Shown: piece by piece, positions 9,259 to 59,688 of the stretch | How positions within the stretch are numbered: position 1 is the first letter of the stretch | How the letters are laid out: each line of letters begins with the position of its first letter | Origin: Octopus vulgaris | Taxonomy: Eukaryota | DNA length: 64,000 nt | Reading direction: 5' to 3' | Assembly: GCA_951406725.2 (NCBI GenBank) | Contig: OX597827.1 | Coordinates: forward strand, 25,978,001-26,042,000 | Position numbers and translations under genes: made by a program | The notes under the pieces: generated by a model | What the model was told of the DNA's origin: nothing | What the model saw: the letters and a program-made list of their open reading frames with translations, nothing else | Database searches by the model: none

Positions 9259-9848
9259 TTTCTACTCTAGGCACAAGATCTGAAATTTTAGGGGAGGGGG
9301 CCAGTGGATTAGATCGACCCCAGTACTTAATTTATCGACCCCGAAAGGATGAAATGCAAAGTCTTCCTCGGCGGAATTTGAACTCAGAATATAAAGACAA
9401 ATGAAATACCGATAGGTATTTCGCCCGGCGTGCTAACGTGTCTGCCAGCTCGCCGTCTTAAATAATCTTCTCTACTCTAGGCACAAGGCCCGAAATTTTT
9501 GGGAAGGGGGCCAGTCAATTAGATCGACCCCATTATGCATCTGGTACTTAATTTATCGACTCCGAAAGGATGAAAGGCAAAGTCGACCTCGGCAGAATTT
9601 GAACCCAGAACGTAAAGACATACGAAATACGTATTTCTTTACTATCCACAAGGGGCTAAACACAGAGAGGGCAAACAAGAACAGACAAACGGATTAAATC
9701 GATTATGTCGATCCCAGTGCGTAACTGGTACTTATTTAATCGACCCCGAAAGGATGAAAGGCAAAATCGACCCCTGCGGAATTTGAACTCAGAACGTAAA
9801 GACATACGAAATACCCCTTAGCATTTCACCCGGCGTGCTAACGTTTCT
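9259..9848 (-). mobile_element. SINE family B cluster: monomer (9259-9457) plus dimer (9468-9848)
   Basis: Minus strand shows the tRNA-like head GGCGAGCTGGCAGA...GAGTTCAAATTCC and the body GCCTTTCATCCTTTCGGGGTCGAT (Meta-domain-like, from memory) three times. Confidence 0.9.
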
Positions 9849-13187: not shown

Positions 13188-13206
13188 ATATATACATACA
13201 ATATTC

Positions 13207-13290
13207 GATATGCACATATATACACAAGGGTACTATATGAGTACCTATATAGGTACTCATATAGTACCCTTGTGTATATATGTGCATATC
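13207..13290. repeat. Perfect 84-bp spacerless palindrome
   Basis: GATATGCACATATATACACAAGGGTACTATATGAGTACCTAT is followed immediately by its exact reverse complement. It extends imperfectly to about 13187-13310. Confidence 0.95.
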
Positions 13291-13429
13291 TAATATAGTA
13301 TGCATATATTCTATTAATTTGCCTGTACGTCTGATAATTCGCTTACCACTTGTGATGGTATTTTAATAATACCATCCCTATATTATGTATATATATAATA
13401 AGAGATATATATAATAAGAGTAGATCGTA

Positions 13430-14874
<1,445 letters not shown>

Positions 14875-20142: not shown

Positions 20143-21418
20143 TCACGTCATCCCATAACTTCTGTTCGATTTTTCCTTTTAAAAATTGAATGTAATTTAA
20201 TAGTATTTTAGAATGTCTAATGGAATTAAAGATTATTTTTAGGCATTTGTGTACATTTAAACTAATTAAATATTATTTTACAGAATAATAGAATTAAAAT
20301 TTATTTGATTAAAACCCTTTCTAACTTGGCAGTACCCAGTAAAGCATTTAAGGCACATAACGCTTTATGAGTACAAAAAAGGAAACCCTGCAGCCGAAGC
20401 GACTCGAAACATACTCAGTTTATGGGAAAGAATGCTTGAATGAAAGAACTTGCAGAAGATGGTTTGCAAAATTCACAAGTGGAGATTTCAACCTTGAAGA
20501 AGAAGATCGAACAGGACGTCCAGTTGAGTTTGATGATAAGCTCTTCGAGGCATTACTTGAAGAAAATCTTGCATTATCAGTTGAAGAATTGGCAATAAAG
20601 CTTAGTTCAAACCATACAACTATTCATCGTCATCTTCAACAACTTGGAAAGGTTCCTAAATTGGAAAATGGGTATCTCATGAATTGTCCGAAAGCAAACG
20701 CAAATCTCGAATTGACATCTGCTCTTCTCTCCGTTCTCGCGAACTCATTTCACCCTTTGTTGATAGACTTGTGACTGGTTATGTAAAATGGAACTTCTAT
20801 CAAAATGGTAAACGTCGTAAACAGTGGCTTGGTAAAGGGGAAAAAACTCAACCACAAGAGAGAAGGGAACTTCATGGGAAAAAGGTTCTTCTCTCTCTCT
20901 GGTGGGATTGCAAAGGAGTAATTCACTTTGAATTGTTACCACCTAATGCAACAATCAATGCTCAAGTCTACTGTCATCAATCAGAGCGTTTGAACCAAGC
21001 TTTGAAGAAACAAGACCCGCTTTAGTGAATAGAAAAGGAGTGATGCTTTATCAGGACAATGCGGGACCCCACGCTGCAAAGATCACAGTAGATCGAAGAG
21101 ATTGCTTGGGAAAAAATTCCTCATCCATCTTATTCTCCCGACCTTGTTAGACAACCATTTGTTTTGTAGTGTACAGAATCATTTGGGGGATATAATTTTC
21201 GCAAGCCAGGAGGAGGTCGAAACTGACATTTCAGAGTTCTTCGCTTTGAAACCAAGAGAGTTTTACATTGATGGGATTAAAAGGCTTGTAAATAGACGGA
21301 ATGAAGTCATAGATAATCAGCAGGGAAAGTACATCGATGATTAAATTTCAATTAAATGTAACATTTGATCACTTGTTTTCTTTATTCAAAATTCGGACAG
21401 AACTTGTGGATGACCTGA
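20143..21418 (+). mobile_element. Full-length (1276 bp) decayed mariner DNA transposon
   Basis: Imperfect ~30-bp TIRs (TCACGTCATCCCATAACTTCTGTTCGATTTTT / AAAATTCGGACAGAACTTGTGGATGACCTGA) with TA on both sides, enclosing a transposase. Confidence 0.95.
20367..21344 (+). pseudogene. Mariner (DD34D) transposase pseudogene
   Basis: HTH region RTCRRWFAKF.SGDFNLEEEDRTGRP, then VTG(Y)VKW with the first catalytic D lost, LSLWWDCKGVIHFELLP, QDNAGPH and HPSYSPDL. Several frameshifts. Confidence 0.93.
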
Positions 21419-23174: not shown

Positions 23175-23549
23175 GCCAGCAATTTTGGGGGAAGCGATGC
23201 GTTAATTGCATCGACCCCAGTGTTCAACGGGTATTTAATTTATCGACTGCGAAATGATGAACGGTAAAATCGACCTCGGCGGAATGTGAACTGAGAACGT
23301 AGAGACTAGCGAAATACCCATTTCTTTACTACCCACAAGGGGCTAAACACAGAGAGGACAAATAAGGACAGACAAACGGATTAAGTCGATGTAATCAACT
23401 CCAGTGCGTAACTGGTACTTATTTAATTGACACCGAAAGGATGAAAGGCAAAGTCGACCTCGGTGGAATTTGAACTCAGAACGTAGCGGCAGACGAAATA
23501 CCGCTAAGCATTTCGCCCGGCGCGCTAACGTTTCTGCCAGCTCGCCGCC
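23175..23549 (-). mobile_element. SINE family B dimer
   Basis: Intact head GGCGGCGAGCTGGCAGAAACGTTAGCG and two bodies, joined at the same junction as 9468-9848. Confidence 0.9.
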
Positions 23550-26073: not shown

Positions 26074-26468
26074 TTCTTTTACTTGTTTCAGTCATTTGAC
26101 TGCGGCCATGCTGGAGCACCGCCTTTAGTCGAGCAAATCGACCCCGGGACTTATTCTTTGTAAGCCCGGTACTTATTCTATCGGTCTCTTTTGCCGAACC
26201 GCTAAGTGACGGGGACGTAAACACACCAGCATCGGTTGTCAAGCAATGCTAGGGAGACAAACACACCAACACACACACATACACACACACATATATATAT
26301 ACATATATACGACAGGCTTCTTTCAGTTTCCGTCTACCAAATCCACTCACAAGGCATTGGTCGGCCCGGGGCTATAGCAGAAGACACTTGCCCAAGATGC
26401 CACGCAGTGGGACTGAACCCGGAGCCATGTGGTTGGTTAGCAAGCTACTTACCACACAGCCACTCCTG
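26074..26468 (-). mobile_element. SINE family A, full-length copy
   Basis: Head, CORE-like CTTGGGCAAGTG, internal (TA)/(TG) tract and tail ...AAATGACTGAAACAAGTAAAAGAG. Nearly identical to 33297-33759. Confidence 0.95.
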
Positions 26469-26558
26469 TATACACATAACACAAGCATGCATTTGCATAT
26501 ATACATAGACACTTGCGCGCGCACACACACACACACACACATACACGCACTCACACAC

Positions 26559-34722: not shown

Positions 34723-35049
34723 CCTAGACAGAAATTTATAAACAGTTAATGAATTGCTACGCGCGTTTCCACGAATCGAATGACTCTTAAAATCACAGTC
34801 CATGTTCCTGGCATGATTACGGTGTAGTCCGTAGAATCCATGGGCATCCGGTTGATCACCATCATTGATTCACTTCTTCATGCGGTATATATTTAGTGCA
34901 TGTACCACAAAGGGATATTTTTACTAGTATGGAGATCAAGCGAGTTATAACGAAATAGGAGCTTTATATGCTTTTTCAAAACGTTTCCTGTACGCAGATT
35001 GAATATATACATATACATACATACATACATACATACATACATACATACA

Positions 35050-35131
<82 letters not shown>

Positions 35132-35132
<1 letters not shown>

Positions 35133-36893
35133 TATGAAAAGGCACAAAACTACAGTCAACAAAAAATAATGAGGGAACTAAAATCCATATTAAACCCATA
35201 CAAAGCAGGGCTCACCGACAAAGAATATGATTATATGACCAATTTCACAAGCAAAACCAGCCAATTCTACGGTATACCTAAGATCCACAAAAGTGAGAAA
35301 ATAAGCAACGCATGCAAGATAGCTACAGACAAAATAATTAAAGTCCCTAATCCTAATGACCTCAAATTGAGACCCATAATAGCAGGTCCCGCATGCTAAA
35401 CCCACCGCCTCAGTAACTTTTTAGACACCCTGTTAAAACCACTCCTAAAACATGTCAAAAGCTATATAAGGGACGACTTAGATATGCTCAATCACCTACC
35501 GAATACTATAAACAAAAACACCATACTGGTATCCTTCGATGTAGTCAACCTCTACTCCAATATCCCCCACAACCTAGGACTAGAGGCAATCCAATTCTGG
35601 CTAGAAAATCACGCCAACGAACTACCACATCGCATCAAAAAAGAATTCGTGATAGAAGGGGTTAAATTCATCCTGGAAAATAACTTTCGCCTTCAATGAC
35701 AACTTCTACCGACAAAAATCGGGGACTGCGATGGGTACACGAATGGCCCCCTCCTTTGCCAACCTAGTCATAGGATATCTAGAGATCAGTCTGTATCGTA
35801 AGGTTCTAGAAAGATATGGCAGCCCTTTCTCCATCTACATAGAAAACAACTGGAAGAGATATCTAGATGACTGTTTCATCCTTTGGCATAAAAATATAGA
35901 AAAACTCATAGAATTCCAGGAAATTTTAAACGGACTGGACGTAAACATCCAATTCACGATGGAATATAGCCAGCAACAACTCCCCTTAATATAATAGAAA
36001 CAGACATATATTATAAGCCTACAGACTCTAAGCAATATCTTCCATTCAATTCATGCCACCCCAGACACACCAGGATGAATATCCCCTTCAACCTAGCAAA
36101 AAGGGTATGCACTATAGTCTCGAACGCAAACACCAGAGACACACGACTATAAGAACTAAAAGATACCCTTATCACCAGGAACTATCCACCTTCACTTATT
36201 GACAAGTGCATTCAACGTGCCCTTCAACTTAACATCAAGGAACTGAGACATCCCAAATCAAAGAAAAACTTACAACCAAAAGCCTTACCATACATCTCCA
36301 CACACAACCCTCTCAATAACGAAGCCTTCGGCACCATCCTCCACAACATATCCCTCCTAAAAAAAGACCACAGAATGAACACAATCCTCCAAACACACAC
36401 GATCATAAAAAGCAAGAGACAGCCTAAATCCATGAAAAGTCTCCTAACACAAGCCCGAATTCACTCTTCAACACAGAAGCCGACAGTAAAAAAATGTGGA
36501 AGACCCAATTGCGGGATATGCGACTATCTAATTGAGTTCTCCTTCAAACAGGGACAACGGTTTACAGTGAAAAGCAACTTCACATGTGCTTCGGAGAACC
36601 TAATTTACTCACTAACCTGCTCCGGGTGTCAAGAGCAGTACATAGGCCAAACAAAAAATAGTTTGCGTAAACGAATGGCCCTGCACAGATCCCAGATAAA
36701 AATTCCCCAAAACAGAAAAATAGCTTTTAGCCAACACATAGATACTTGCGCCAACCAAAAACACCAAGCTTCATGATTTTCCCCCTCTACCAATTTAGGG
36801 ACGACACAACCTCGAGACAACGAATAAGTAAAGAAACTCTCTTTATTGCAAAATACAGGCCACTTCTTAACCGGTCTACGACAAACAATTAAT
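35132..36893 (+). pseudogene. PLE reverse transcriptase / GIY-YIG endonuclease pseudogene
   Basis: FYGIPKIHK, LRPIIAGP, SFDVVNLYSNIP, GTAMGTRMAPSFANL, RYLDDCF, TDIYYKPTD, Cys motif CGRPNCGIC, NLIYSLTC..C.EQYIGQT. A few stops, frameshifts and small deletions. Confidence 0.95.
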
Positions 36894-38104: not shown

Positions 38105-40794
38105 TAGATAGATAGATAGTTAGATAGATAGATAGATATTTAGATTTATCTCTCTAAATACATCATACATATCTTAATAAATATAAGATAGCGTTTATAC
38201 AATGAGATAGCGAACATAGAACCGCGAAGACGTATTTGTGTAAGTCATCGTGTTTCAATATAATCACTTCTGACAGCCATTTTCGTTTGGAACTGTTATT
38301 AATTAACTCTAAGGCACAACAGATATTTAGAGAACGATTTATATATTATTCATGAATCAACAAAGTTCACTCGTTCTATGAACGATTTTTCACTTTACTT
38401 TCCTATAAAAACTGCCTTTGACATTCTTTTCAAGCATTTTATCAAAACTGATTATATATTAATTATTTAACAGCAATGTTGATTGATGGCTTTTAGAATT
38501 CATACTTCTTTAACGATGTTGTTTAAACGAGTAACTAAAAGTCACTCTTGTCGTTGTTCAACGATATACCCACAATGCAATAGTCACTTTGCACACTGTA
38601 CTGACACAATTTACGCTCAGAAACATAAATAGCAGACAAATTAAATAACAATGTTGTTTAATTCTATTGTCTATTGGTCACGAGTTATGTCGTCAACGTT
38701 TTCTTTTTCATTTGGTCACATGATACAGTATACTCTCTTTCGTTAGCAGTTGCTTTTCTTTCATTCTCTTTGTCTTCCTGATGGTAGCAAACGGCTATCC
38801 ACTCATTCTCTCTCTCTCTCTCCCTCTCAATTCTCTCCTCTCTCTTTCCTTCTCTCTCCCGCTCTTCGCTTCTGTAACAACTGTCAGTTTTGTCTTATTC
38901 TCTGGTGATAACGCCATCTCTCATTTTGTCCTCTCCCTCTTTCTCTCTCTCCCGCTTTCTCTCTCTCTCTTTCTCTCTCCCTCTTTCTCTCTCTCTCTTC
39001 CTCTCTCTCTCTCTCTCTCGTGGTCGCAATATCTACGCTTTATATTTTTATTTCTTTATTGAACTCATCACTGTCATTCTGTCTGTCTGTCTGTCTGTCT
39101 CTCTATCTCGCTCTCTTCAGCCACATTTCACACTCCCACCTCCCATTTATCTCTCACATCACCTTTTGCTCCCATCGCCTCTCTCCTGCCCTGTTTCTTC
39201 CTCTCTTTTACGCATCTTTCAATGCCCTCTTTCCGCTCTCTAACAATACACACACAGAATTCACTGCTTACATATATATGTGCTTCTATAATAAACTGAA
39301 TCTAAAGATCAACAACAAGCAATCCGATGTCAGGAGAGGTAGAGCAAAGGGAGGGAACAGAGAGAGAGAGTGAGAGAGAGAGAGAAAGACTGATAGAGAT
39401 GAATGTAAAGATAAAGGGAGAGAAAAAAGAATGGAGGAGAGTAGAATATGTCATTAGTTGATAACTAATCGAATTTTCATCCAGATATATGTAGATGCAG
39501 AATATAAAACAACAGACATGAACTTGTTATTTATTTTGTTCAGTTTTATAGCAATTGATTATGTTTACAGCGTAGAATTCTGCGTGCAAAATAATCTCTC
39601 ATCGATTTTCAAACAGAATTGATCTCAACCATATATTTCATGCTATGGAAACAAAATAAAATAAAGATGTCGATAACTTAACAAAATGAATGTACAACAA
39701 AAAGAAGAAAAACGAACGAAACAAAAAGTTTTTAAAAAATAAACAACAAACGAATCAAAACAAAATATATAAAACAAAATGGTTTCGTTGAGAAAAACAA
39801 AACTGAAGATGTCCAGTAACAAATGAAATAAATAGACAGTATGAAGTCTCTTTATGTTCTGCTAGGAAGGAGCAAAAAACAAAATTGACAACAAAGGACA
39901 GGAAAAGCAAAATAACAAAATCTCTCTTTCCAGATGCTTCTATTCCTCTACGTTCTACACGTGATCTATGTGACCTTTCGTGGATAACAAAACCTGGTGT
40001 ATTTTTGTTTTCTCGAAATTACCTGGCGGAACATTGGTGTAGAAAGCCAGAACAATAGGAACCACGTTTTAAAGACAATTTCAAATATTACAAGAATAAA
40101 ACAACTTTAAATTTAGTTTTAGTCTTTTTTTTTCATTAGAATGGAATCAACATTTAAACTTTCTGTACTCTCTTTAACTAAAATTCCAAATAAAATTCAA
40201 AAGAAAATATATAGTATATAACCTTGCCTTATGCCTTGCTGTTTTCGAACATAGAACACGAATGGATTGTATCTACATCTTTTGTCAAACAAAACATAGA
40301 ATACTTACTATTTTGATAGACAGTACTTTGTTTTTGGTCACGAGGATGAGGATTGTGTTAATAATATTGCATTAGATTTTACGAACAGAGCATAACTAAA
40401 AAACAAAGACCTCTAGTGAAGGAAAAAGCCACAAAGGATGTTGGACTACCTTGTGCTGTGGAAGGTCAATTAGTTTGAACTTAGCAGCCGACTTCTACAA
40501 TTGAAGACAGATGCAAATCAAGATCGATCTCTGTGGAATTAGGAATTCAAATGGGAAGAGACATAAAGGAAATACTAACCTTTTTTCACATATTGGTAGC
40601 ATGTCTCAAAGAGTAACAAACTTTGGACAGTCTTTTTGCAATTTTTGATAGGGTTCAGCAAAATGAGACTGCAATTGAATTCCTGGATGTGAAAATGGGG
40701 GATTTTCTTCATCATCATCAGTGGAATTACTTACAACAGGCAACCAGCGAAGCTATATTCCGTTTTCTTTTGTCATATCTTCCTTCACTTGTTC

Positions 40795-41149: not shown

Positions 41150-41925
<776 letters not shown>

Positions 41926-42198: not shown

Positions 42199-42339
42199 CT
42201 AAAGCAATATAAAATAAGGTAAAAAGTTTTTGCCACGGTGATACATACGTAAGCTTAAATTCAATAACGAATAGAGCATATGTGGTCAATAATATTTACA
42301 AAATTTGCACTACTTTTCACTGAGTAAGTGCGGTCGATA

Positions 42340-42499
42340 CGATGGACTTCTTTCAGTTTCCGTCTACCAAATCCACTTACAAGGCTTTGGTCGGCACGAG
42401 GCCATAGTAGGAGACATTTGCCTACGGTGCCGCGCTGTGGGACTGAACCCATAACCATGTAGTTAGGAAACAAACTTCTTACCACACAGCCTCAGCTGC
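42340..42499 (-). mobile_element. SINE family A 5' half
   Basis: Plus strand CTTCTTTCAGTTTCCGTCTACCAAATCCAC...GGGACTGAACCC...CTTACCACACAGCC. Confidence 0.88.
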
Positions 42500-43637
42500 A
42501 TCTATACAACACATTCTCACTTGAAAATTAGGAAGAATGATTCTCTTGGCAGTTTCTGAACAATTATTACTTTCTTGGAACTGAATAGAAATTAAGCATT
42601 TGTTTACAAAGTTTCACGAAAGTCCAACAGGGAAGTGGTTGTTAAGAAATGCTAAACAACTCTCTGGGATGAAGGTAATAAAAAAAGGTAAGGGAGCGAC
42701 ACATTAAAAACGATGTCAACTGGGAGATAAGATAGAAGTTGTGTTCATTGGTTTCAGTTATATCTTACCAGTGATACCTCCACAAAAACTCGAACAGTCT
42801 ACAAATGAATTATTTTGGAGATCAGCTGTCCTGTCTGTTTCCTTAAAAATTTGCTACGAGTTTGAAAGGAAAGAATTCTTGCCGATAGTAACGGATTAGT
42901 GGATCCAACTCTTGAAATGCAGTGCTTAAAATTAAGATTAGTTGATATAGGTGTTCTAATTGCAGTTTTTTCTTCGAGTATTGCTACCATTCTTATTCTG
43001 AAGGAATAACCTTCCTTTCGAGTTCCTCTGTGACTTATCATAACTGAACTCTATTTCTGTGATACTGAAAAGAACTCTAGTATCGGACAACTTCTTAAGA
43101 TATGCCAAATGAGTGTCTGAGGTGAAGGCACAATGATACACAGGAGAGCTGTGTGGATATCTGGAAAGATATTATAGGAATTTCCTAACAAATCCTAACA
43201 ACTGAGAGTGGATGTTAAATGGGGACCAGCCAGAGGCCAAAAACAGATTAAAAATGGTAGTGAAATTCACGTTTGCCCTAAATGCTCTTTCCTTCGGAGA
43301 AACGTAAAAACCTTCAATTTCTTTGCAGATATAGGCACAAATGTGTTTCTGTTCTTAAGGGGCTTAATTTGCTATCTCGAGTTACAGGTTCAGCGCCACT
43401 GCGCGGCACCTTGGACAAATGTCTTCTAATATAGCCCCCGGTAAATCAATGCCGTGTGTGTGAATTTGAGTGAAATTGTGGGGAGGGCCATTTGCATATA
43501 TATATATATATATAAATTTAAATAATAAGAGTGAAAAATTGAATATTAATTTGATTAATATCAATTTAAAACCAGTGGCCTAGCATATTTCTAAAAATCT
43601 GAAGATTCAGAAAAATTATATTACATACATATAATAC

Positions 43638-43784
43638 GGATGACCACTACGTGGTCATCCATTATGCCAGAGGTAGACCCCATATGGTCTGCCCACTAAG
43701 AAAATATTGTTGTCAAACTCTTCTTCGTGGTCAGACCATATGGGGTCTACCTCTAGCATAATGGAGTCCACTTAGTGATCATCC
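43638..43784. repeat. Nested inverted repeat (~63-bp arms, each beginning with a small hairpin)
   Basis: GGATGACCACTACGTGGTCATCCATTATGCCAGAGGTAGACCCCATATGGTCTG pairs with CAGACCATATGGGGTCTACCTCTAGCATAATGGAGTCCACTTAGTGATCATCC. Confidence 0.9.
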
Positions 43785-43786
43785 CT

Positions 43787-43836
<50 letters not shown>

Positions 43837-43911: not shown

Positions 43912-44067
<156 letters not shown>

Positions 44068-44195
44068 TAGGTAGGTACAATAAATTCCGGATGAATACTT
44101 GATAAATGTAAGCACCTGTATATGCCAGCTAGTAGCATAGTTGAGAGGATATATGTATCAAATGAAATAAATGAAAAACAGGACACAAAGGATGT

Positions 44196-44290
44196 TGCGG
44201 TACGTATGTTTCGAGCGTTATAGAACAACTTATTCTTACATCAATGCATAATCAACATAACAGATAGTTCAAAAGCCCTCTTCAGCCGCA
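44196..44290 (-). ncRNA. Type I hammerhead ribozyme, left arm
   Basis: Minus strand TGCGG-CTGAAGA-GGGC...GCTC-GAAAC-ATAC-GTA-CCGCA. Confidence 0.8.
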
Positions 44291-44480
44291 TGCAATTGCT
44301 ACACCAAAGAAAACGATATGGACGATTTGGCTTGGAGTTTAATAATACCATGTACGCCTATGAAGATTTACAAACATACTTTCCCAATGATACCCCGTTT
44401 ACCTACCATTATAAACAATACCAAATGTTTTTTCTCAAACCTTTCATAATGTGATACAAGTCTTTGGTGTAGCAATTACA

Positions 44481-44575
44481 TGCGGCTGAAGAGGGCTTTT
44501 GAACTATCTGTTATGTCGATTATGCATTGATGTAAGAATAAGTTGTTCTATAAAGCTCGAAACATATGTACCGCA
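44481..44575 (+). ncRNA. Type I hammerhead ribozyme with intact core, right arm
   Basis: TGCGG-CTGAAGA-GGGCTTT...AAAGCTC-GAAAC-ATAT-GTA-CCGCA. All core nucleotides and G10.1-C11.1 are present, and stem III is the palindrome ACATATGT. Predicted cleavage after A44570. Confidence 0.88.
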
Positions 44576-44614
44576 ACATCCTTTGTGTCCTGTTTTTCAT
44601 TTATTTCATTTGAT

Positions 44615-44650
<36 letters not shown>

Positions 44651-45139: not shown

Positions 45140-45322
45140 TGGTTTCAAATTTTGACACAAGGCCAGCAATTTTGGCAAGGGTTTAAGTCAATTACATCGA
45201 CACCAGTCATCAATTGGTACTTATTTTATCCACTCCAAAAAATGAAAGCCAAAGTGGATCTCGGCGGAATTTTGAACTAAATAAGTCACAGCATGTTAAA
45301 AATTCTGCTGGCTCGCTGCCTT
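45140..45322 (-). mobile_element. SINE family B, degenerate copy
   Basis: Plus strand GGCCAGCAATTTTGG...GGTACTTATTTTATC...CTCGGCGGAATTTTGAACT...CTGCTGGCTCGCTGCC. Confidence 0.75.
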
Positions 45323-51832: not shown

Positions 51833-51838
51833 ACATAT

Positions 51839-52670
<832 letters not shown>

Positions 52671-59480: not shown

Positions 59481-59510
<30 letters not shown>

Positions 59511-59511
<1 letters not shown>

Positions 59512-59688
59512 ATCAAAATAAATAACAGGATACCCAGAGGTGATGCAGTACGACCGTTTCAAGCGGTTCTATTTAACTGAACAATGCAATCATTACTTCA
59601 CGATTGCATTGTTCAATTAAATGCATCCCCTTGAAACGTTCGTACTGCATCGGGTCGTACTCTGGATATCCTTTTGCTTATTTTGATT
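59511..59688. repeat. Fold-back hairpin (~80-bp arms, 10-nt loop) carrying hammerhead 3' halves
   Basis: AATCAAAATAA...GATGCAGTACGACCGTTTCAAG...GAACAATGCAATC pairs with GATTGCATTGTTC...CTTGAAACGTTCGTACTGCATC...TTATTTTGATT. The left arm abuts (TA)n and another (TA)n lies ~100 bp downstream. Confidence 0.85.

Follow-up and report, generated by a model that had tools for sequence, protein, structure and literature searches.

Published insertions of Penelope-like elements (PLEs) are described as carrying an inverted 5'-truncated copy and a one-ended tail and as being biased towards microsatellites (PMC8557442; PMC3846280; PMC8969392), and their pseudo-LTRs (pLTRs) are given as about 200 bp long and mostly non-coding (PMC3846280). 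PLE inversions are said to trouble assemblies (PMC8557442). Pairs of hammerhead ribozymes on opposite strands, 100-700 bp apart, were reported in 2014 (PMC4209133), and such ribozymes are thought to require a same-strand neighbour for helix III (PMC4209133; PMC6765202). The purified PAc protein is reported to cut and extend both strands of AT-rich DNA and to start at two internal RNA sites, which define the tail (PMC11167929). Moreover, non-autonomous pLTR derivatives and solo monomers have been described (10.64898/2026.07.22.740005; PMC8557442).

The locus at 44074-44617 of the 64-kb window (the whole stretch of DNA that was analysed) is probably one recent insertion of a high-copy PLE-type family, in which two 5'-truncated 3'-end (pseudo-LTR) copies lie head to head inside a microsatellite. 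The head-to-head truncated copy is known from the EN+ PLEs Penelope/Poseidon, Neptune, Nematis and Hydra (Craig et al. 2021, PMC8557442; Arkhipova et al. 2013, PMC3846280), and so are, from the insertions described there, the one-ended extension, the microsatellite without clear duplication and the hammerhead near the 3' end. Unlike these EN+ insertions, the locus has no ORF, its extension measures about 80 rather than 30-40 bp, and there is no palindromic overlap at the inversion junction. The hammerheads agree with those of PLEs (Cervera and de la Pena 2014, PMC4209133) in being of type I with a helix I of 5 bp, a helix II of 7 bp and a small palindromic helix III, and in their position on opposite strands 100-700 bp apart, here about 200 bp. 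In contrast to the PLE hammerheads of the main text of that article, helix II reaches a length of 66 nt and includes an inner hairpin, and stem II of this copy starts on its 5' side without an unpaired base.

Non-LTR retrozymes were also compared; they are likewise non-coding, AT-rich and a few hundred bp long (Cervera and de la Pena 2020, PMC7229834; 10.64898/2026.07.22.740005), and they share with the locus a type I hammerhead, a high copy number and a relation to pLTRs. However, what defines a retrozyme are head-to-tail repeats in which two ribozymes on one strand set a circle free, whereas the copies here are unequal and on opposite strands. The locus does not fit the definition of a non-LTR retrozyme, as the only two cores of the window lie on opposite strands and not in a same-strand tandem.

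Layout, boundaries and flanks of the locus

The locus is composed of the following features, from left to right, with strands in brackets:

44020..44073 (no strand): left target flank, (TA)n with short GGTA repeats
44074..44153 (-): tail, a 3' extension of about 80 bp of the left copy that the right copy lacks, placed by family depth and bridging pieces
44154..44310 (-): left arm, in which the 3' end of the family lies in inverted orientation and truncated at its 5' side, identical to the right arm at 153/157 positions
44196..44290 (-): left type I hammerhead, damaged, with a predicted cut after 44201
44311..44460 (+): "spacer", the 5' part of the longer direct copy and native upstream family sequence, placed by bridging pieces and depth
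44461..44617 (+): right arm, the 3' part of the direct copy, ending without a tail
44481..44575 (+): right type I hammerhead, with a predicted cut at 44570/44571
44493..44558 (+): extended helix II of 66 nt in the predicted fold, built from segments of 7 and 4 bp plus an inner hairpin (about 10 bp)
44562..44569 (+): 8-nt palindromic helix III with loop, the dimer-forming part (self-duplex of 8 bp, -7.0 kcal/mol)
44616..44649 (no strand): right target flank, (CA)n(TA)n

A first-pass annotation had described a 464-bp unit at 44154..44617 with 157-bp inverted arms of very few mismatches. The arms are as described, with 44154-44310 and 44461-44617 comprising 157 nt each, 153 of them identical, and 150 nt between them. 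The outer boundary had to be moved, since the left copy continues through the 80-bp family extension to about 44074, and the element therefore spans about 544 bp rather than 464. The direct copy thus covers 44311-44617 on the (+) strand (307 bp) and the inverted copy 44310-44074 on the (-) strand (about 237 bp), and the two are joined at their 5' ends. The four arm mismatches (right/left) are at 44478/44293, 44517/44254, 44554/44217 and 44567/44204. The resulting arm difference of 2.5% suggests that the insertion is recent. At three of the four differences it is the left arm that holds the minority letter of the family, and two of these damage the ribozyme.

At the insertion flanks, no target duplication of at least 5 bp was found, and there is no second copy of the tail within the 64-kb window. 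Hallmarks of EN+ PLEs found at the locus or in its family are the 5' truncation (from depth and variable breakpoints in other runs, with the caveats on summed depth and subfamilies given below), the inverted head-to-head copy, and a hammerhead with palindromic helix III near the 3' end; the direct (partial tandem) pLTR arrangement does not occur at 44074-44617. MITE/TIR elements do not offer a matching description, given the 80-bp asymmetry, the lack of a target duplication and the absence of the junction from the 32 listed contigs of the other runs.

As for coding capacity, the annotated lack of a coding region is borne out: the five short open frames at the locus yield no Pfam match near the cut-off (best E 0.03). 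For a 56-codon open frame through the tail no homologue was found, with 0/7 candidates scoring in a search for a longer protein, which is weak evidence. This is also a difference to PAc, the ORF of which is reported to begin within the hammerhead (PMC11167929).

Other repeats were noticed in the window. An imperfect palindrome of about 190 bp at 43617-43806, which is 82% self-inverted, contains nested short inverted repeats and is followed by (TA)n, is possibly a small foldback element, and a near-perfect AT-rich palindrome of about 80-120 bp at 13190-13307 is a source of spurious microRNA matches. A broken mariner-type transposase lies at 20361-21344 (+) (Mos1 HTH domain, E 3e-7). Two dispersed SINE-like families with 74-81% identity are represented by 42337-42513, 43381-43468, 26307-26483 and 51836-51993 for the first, and by 45162-45278, 23175-23476 and 9688-9789 for the second. 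Short blastn matches at 39110, 40419, 25015 and 39816 were inspected and are not copies of the hammerhead family, and nhmmer gave a single weak AT-rich match in the window (59502-59568, E 0.009). Exact-pattern scans of metagenome contigs, viral contigs and prokaryote genomes gave no match, as expected for an animal repeat.

Family members in public runs

Part of 44072-44617 is matched by 20 of the 24 listed runs, under four organism labels, none of which reaches half of its words; none of the 24 is recorded as RNA with a match. Four of the 20 matching runs, all of them in the form of contigs, were mapped at 82% likeness (contigs in X1, 1482; X2, 969; X6, 646; X5, 75), X5 being by guess a putative RNA run whose 75 contigs were not taken as evidence of expression. 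In these four, all depth at 44394 carries another letter, and the window's own copy is thus apparently absent, so that the run data describe the family and not the locus in the window. Single pieces were listed for 32 of 3193, and bridging of a junction required at least 31 letters on each side.

Eight of the 32 listed pieces bridge the junction of spacer and right arm at 44460/44461 (X1 piece 6; X2 pieces 11 and 12; X5 pieces 20 and 22; X6 pieces 28, 30 and 31), but the left junction at 44310/44311 is bridged by none of them and is present in none of the seven joints that were detected. As the spacer is linked to the right arm and not to the left one, it is the upstream sequence of the family. 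The "150-bp unique spacer" of the annotation thus has the right length but is not unique, being family sequence that exists in many copies and runs on into the right arm. The boundary between left arm and tail at 44153/44154 is bridged by 3/32 listed pieces (X2 pieces 9 and 10; X6 piece 26), and 44074-44153 therefore is family sequence downstream of the arm that only the left copy has. Across the stretch, summed depth peaks within this tail, at 44091-44128; loose ends in X1 and X6 (six contigs each) show a similar tail end adjoining a microsatellite, and one X5 contig hints at a tail end at +47. Behind 44597 and 44602, the consensus of the loose ends partly resembles the start of the tail, so there is no clean proof of a common short 3' end.

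Within the spacer, summed depth, which is not equal to copy number, climbs 3'-ward over eight bins by factors of 324, 47 and 25 in X1, X2 and X6, with rank correlations of 1.0, 0.81 and 1.0, respectively. This fall towards the 5' side matches the expected result of 5' truncation, with the caveat that the low depth at 44319-44356 may partly come from a subfamily difference upstream of 44359. Five listed pieces end at this position and thereby suggest that another subfamily exists upstream of it. Loose ends at 44427-44442 in X1, X2 and X5 indicate that some members also differ upstream of 44442.

Five of the seven joints are between an inverted and a direct copy, with a different breakpoint pair in each (44118/44549, 44167/44561, 44206/44404, 44243/44550 and 44310/44427), the other two being a 35-nt deletion and a replaced stretch. 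Each inverted joint comes from one contig per run at single-contig depth, and joints with a likeness below 95 or a side of less than 30 letters, as in two of the five inverted ones, are often repeat-derived. The joint 44206/44404 is common to X2 and X6, which bear two organism labels, and this suggests a shared older insertion that is usable as a marker.

Could the inversion have arisen after the insertion, by fold-back repair at a single direct copy, or be an artefact of a chimeric read or an assembly error? The exact locus is in none of the mapped runs, and PLE inversions reportedly are difficult to assemble (PMC8557442). However, the arms differ at four sites, other runs contain five inverted joints of a similar kind, and the 80-bp left tail could not originate from a fold-back of the right copy, which makes this explanation extremely unlikely.

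A different question is whether arm, spacer and arm move together as a MITE-like unit that keeps its antisense arm as an off-switch of the ribozyme, which corresponds to the non-autonomous ribozyme-switch family of the first-pass annotation. The 97% identity of the arms would agree with such a unit, and so would the computed loss of the active fold on both strands upon arm pairing. Nevertheless, we regard it as quite improbable: the spacer is upstream element sequence, its left junction was seen in 0/32 listed pieces and 0/7 joints while other inverted copies break elsewhere, the 80-bp asymmetry means that the arms are not the termini of the element, minority letters, two of them damaging the ribozyme, are in the left arm at 3/4 differences, and no target duplication exists. 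The alternative offered by the same annotation, a very short PLE insertion, is supported by the layout, the family junctions and the variable breakpoints. It had been added that the locus would be an ordinary inverted truncation if the spacer was simply upstream PLE sequence and the unit single-copy. This largely applies, as the spacer belongs to the upstream part of the element, and as the left junction is absent from the listed contigs of the other runs.

One X6 contig deserves separate consideration. Its direct copy stops at 44310 and turns to 44427, with 29 further letters unaccounted for, and its junction is thus not identical to that of the window. The stop may mark a fixed 5' start, or it may have been imposed by the end of the reference. 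If the insertion had the same geometry and an ORF-less source, namely a short non-autonomous PLE pseudo-LTR derivative moved in trans by a PLE, this contig would mark the true 5' end of the family. Such a source would be a dispersed monomeric retrozyme or a SINE-like passenger of about 390 nt or slightly more; it is compatible with the two-copy insertion proposed above and differs from it only in the sequence upstream of 44311. The 387 nt of family sequence lack a coding signal, very many contigs are found in public runs, one independent inverted copy (that of X6) stops at 44310, and the published non-autonomous pLTR derivatives and solo monomers (10.64898/2026.07.22.740005; PMC8557442) set a precedent. 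On the other side, no tandem junction is among the seven joints, the steady 5'-ward fall in depth is as expected if a longer RNA was truncated, published pLTRs (about 200 bp) are mostly non-coding anyway (PMC3846280), and the 29 letters of the X6 contig may be more upstream sequence. Regarding the absent tandem joint (3' end into spacer start), short contigs rarely reveal one. We consider an ORF-less source possible, but as a tentative option.

The same contig would be a sister form if, in the window's own genome, the unit itself, with a fixed direct-copy start at 44311, had been amplified as a short ORF-less retroposon. The antisense arm would then keep the long-armed hammerhead uncut in read-through transcripts, and transcripts that start in the spacer would remain capable of cutting as dimers in trans. 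The probability of this scenario appears to be small.

The two hammerheads and the extended helix II

Each arm contains a type I hammerhead core (CUGAAGA...GAAA) with a stem I of 5 bp, and the two ribozymes face outwards, in agreement with the annotation. A descriptor scan detected two cores in the window, whereas 200 dinucleotide Markov samples contained on average 0.005 per 64 kb. The observed number is far above chance, although the count amounts to one independent motif, because the cores are copies of each other. No further core was found in the window, also by a relaxed scan. In the right ribozyme, stem I is formed by 44481-85 and 44571-75, the core by 44486-92 and 44559-62, and stem II has 7 bp. 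All elements of type I (CUGANGA, GAAA, UH, three helices) are complete in this copy, whereas the left one has a mismatch in stem II. "Two intact hammerheads" is thus correct for the right copy but not for the left one, in which a U-C mismatch interrupts stem II (44217) and the helix III palindrome is broken at 44204. The self-duplex of helix III accordingly has -2.1 kcal/mol on the left versus -7.0 kcal/mol on the right, and the active fold costs 9.3 versus 4.8 kcal/mol. By sequence and predicted fold, only the right ribozyme is undamaged, and the decay of the left one fits with an absence of selection on the left copy.

The loop II of about 50 nt that had been annotated is replaced in the predicted structure by a mostly paired, 66-nt extended helix II. 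Its fold has -14.9 kcal/mol (z -2.5), and 5/500 shuffles are equally good. Family variants are compatible with the predicted helix: 44557 T>C changes a G-U to a G-C pair, and 44501 G>A (21-86% of depth) and 44548 C>T (28-45%) strike both partners of one pair, the two being seen in separate contigs and hence not as joint changes. One variant, 44493 G>A (13-43% of depth), would disrupt stem II at its first base pair, which counts against strict conservation. Family loose ends at 44526-44538 reveal a helix II that is about 11 nt shorter before 44538 in all four runs, and the length of the extension therefore varies among subfamilies.

In Rfam, a local search with 516 nt gave four matches up to E 10, none of which is a hammerhead, and a search with the whole window gave only repeat-driven and hairpin matches among the best 150 of 243. 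It is likely that the 66-nt helix II causes this miss. In a limited search of the literature on long helix II or loop II variants, no comparable natural case came up (PMC3088659, PMC6155905). The 66-nt structured helix II and the tail of about 80 bp may be called mildly new, as neither had a published match within this limited search.

When the monomers are folded without constraints, the active fold is not favoured (z 0.47 and 1.86), and stem I has a probability of about 0.01. Such predicted values would fit with a dimer- or protein-assisted ribozyme, and equally with a poor one. With a helix III that is an 8-nt palindrome, the ribozyme would be expected to cut for the most part in dimers, which tandem copies on the same strand would provide.

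Putative origin, PLE partner and significance

How could the head-to-head insertion have been generated? The RT-endonuclease of an autonomous partner would cut both strands of an AT-rich simple repeat, and each 3' end would then serve as primer for the reverse transcription of element RNA, in one case with a distal start that includes the tail and in the other with a proximal start that does not. Both reverse transcriptions would stop early, and the two 5' ends would subsequently be joined, so that the "spacer" would be nothing else than the excess length of the longer copy over the shorter one, and the hammerhead would be the usual pLTR ribozyme of the family. The both-strand cutting and extension and the two RT starts of this scheme have their model in PAc, a Poseidon element from Anolis (Frangieh et al. 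2024, PMC11167929).

The membership of the family in PLEs is supported by non-coding hallmarks of the sequence, and we hence use the term PLE-type. It counts against the proposed explanation that the tail has about 80 bp versus the published 30-40, and that the hammerhead family, in the 387 nt known of it, has no linked RT or GIY-YIG sequence. The presence of other PLE-type remnants in the window (GIY-YIG at 14380-14760 and 36153-36773, RT at 35656-35991) speaks in favour of it; these share no sequence with the family and contain no hammerhead core under the relaxed scan. These broken remnants, at 34959-36776 (+) and 14377-14760 (-), have GIY-YIG domains with E 4e-4 and 4e-7, and their endonuclease pieces share 66% identity over 76 aa. 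The RT fragment of the 34959-36776 remnant has a Pfam E of 8e-4, which is below the cut-off, and the Cys-rich linker before its endonuclease is one that we take to be Neptune-like. A Cys-rich open frame at 41188-41529 (-), which has no Pfam match and ends at a microsatellite, presumably resembles a Penelope/Poseidon linker with the start of the endonuclease.

With respect to activity, the locus would have no dimer partner in cis, as it is without a same-strand tandem copy. The computed arm duplex has -264 kcal/mol and places the active fold 136-144 kcal/mol out of reach. Read-through of either strand would transcribe the antisense arm first and result in a 157-bp duplex, and the locus is for this reason most likely a catalytically silent relic, as far as can be judged from the computed energies, and at most a source of double-stranded RNA. 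The annotated idea that arm pairing switches cleavage off is right insofar as the computed masking is complete, but this masking is a by-product of any 157-bp inversion and shows no selected switch.

As such, the locus is ordinary, since the layout of truncated PLE pseudo-LTRs has already been described. If the above-mentioned amplification with a retained antisense arm were true, it would represent a natural antisense-locked ribozyme element of real interest. What the family offers is a hammerhead that is highly abundant, has a structured helix II of 66 nt and was missed by Rfam here, and descriptor searches with short loop limits would consequently undercount such ribozymes. With its many inverted copies, varied breakpoints and long one-ended tail, the family is good test material for PLE inversion by both-strand priming at two RT starts.
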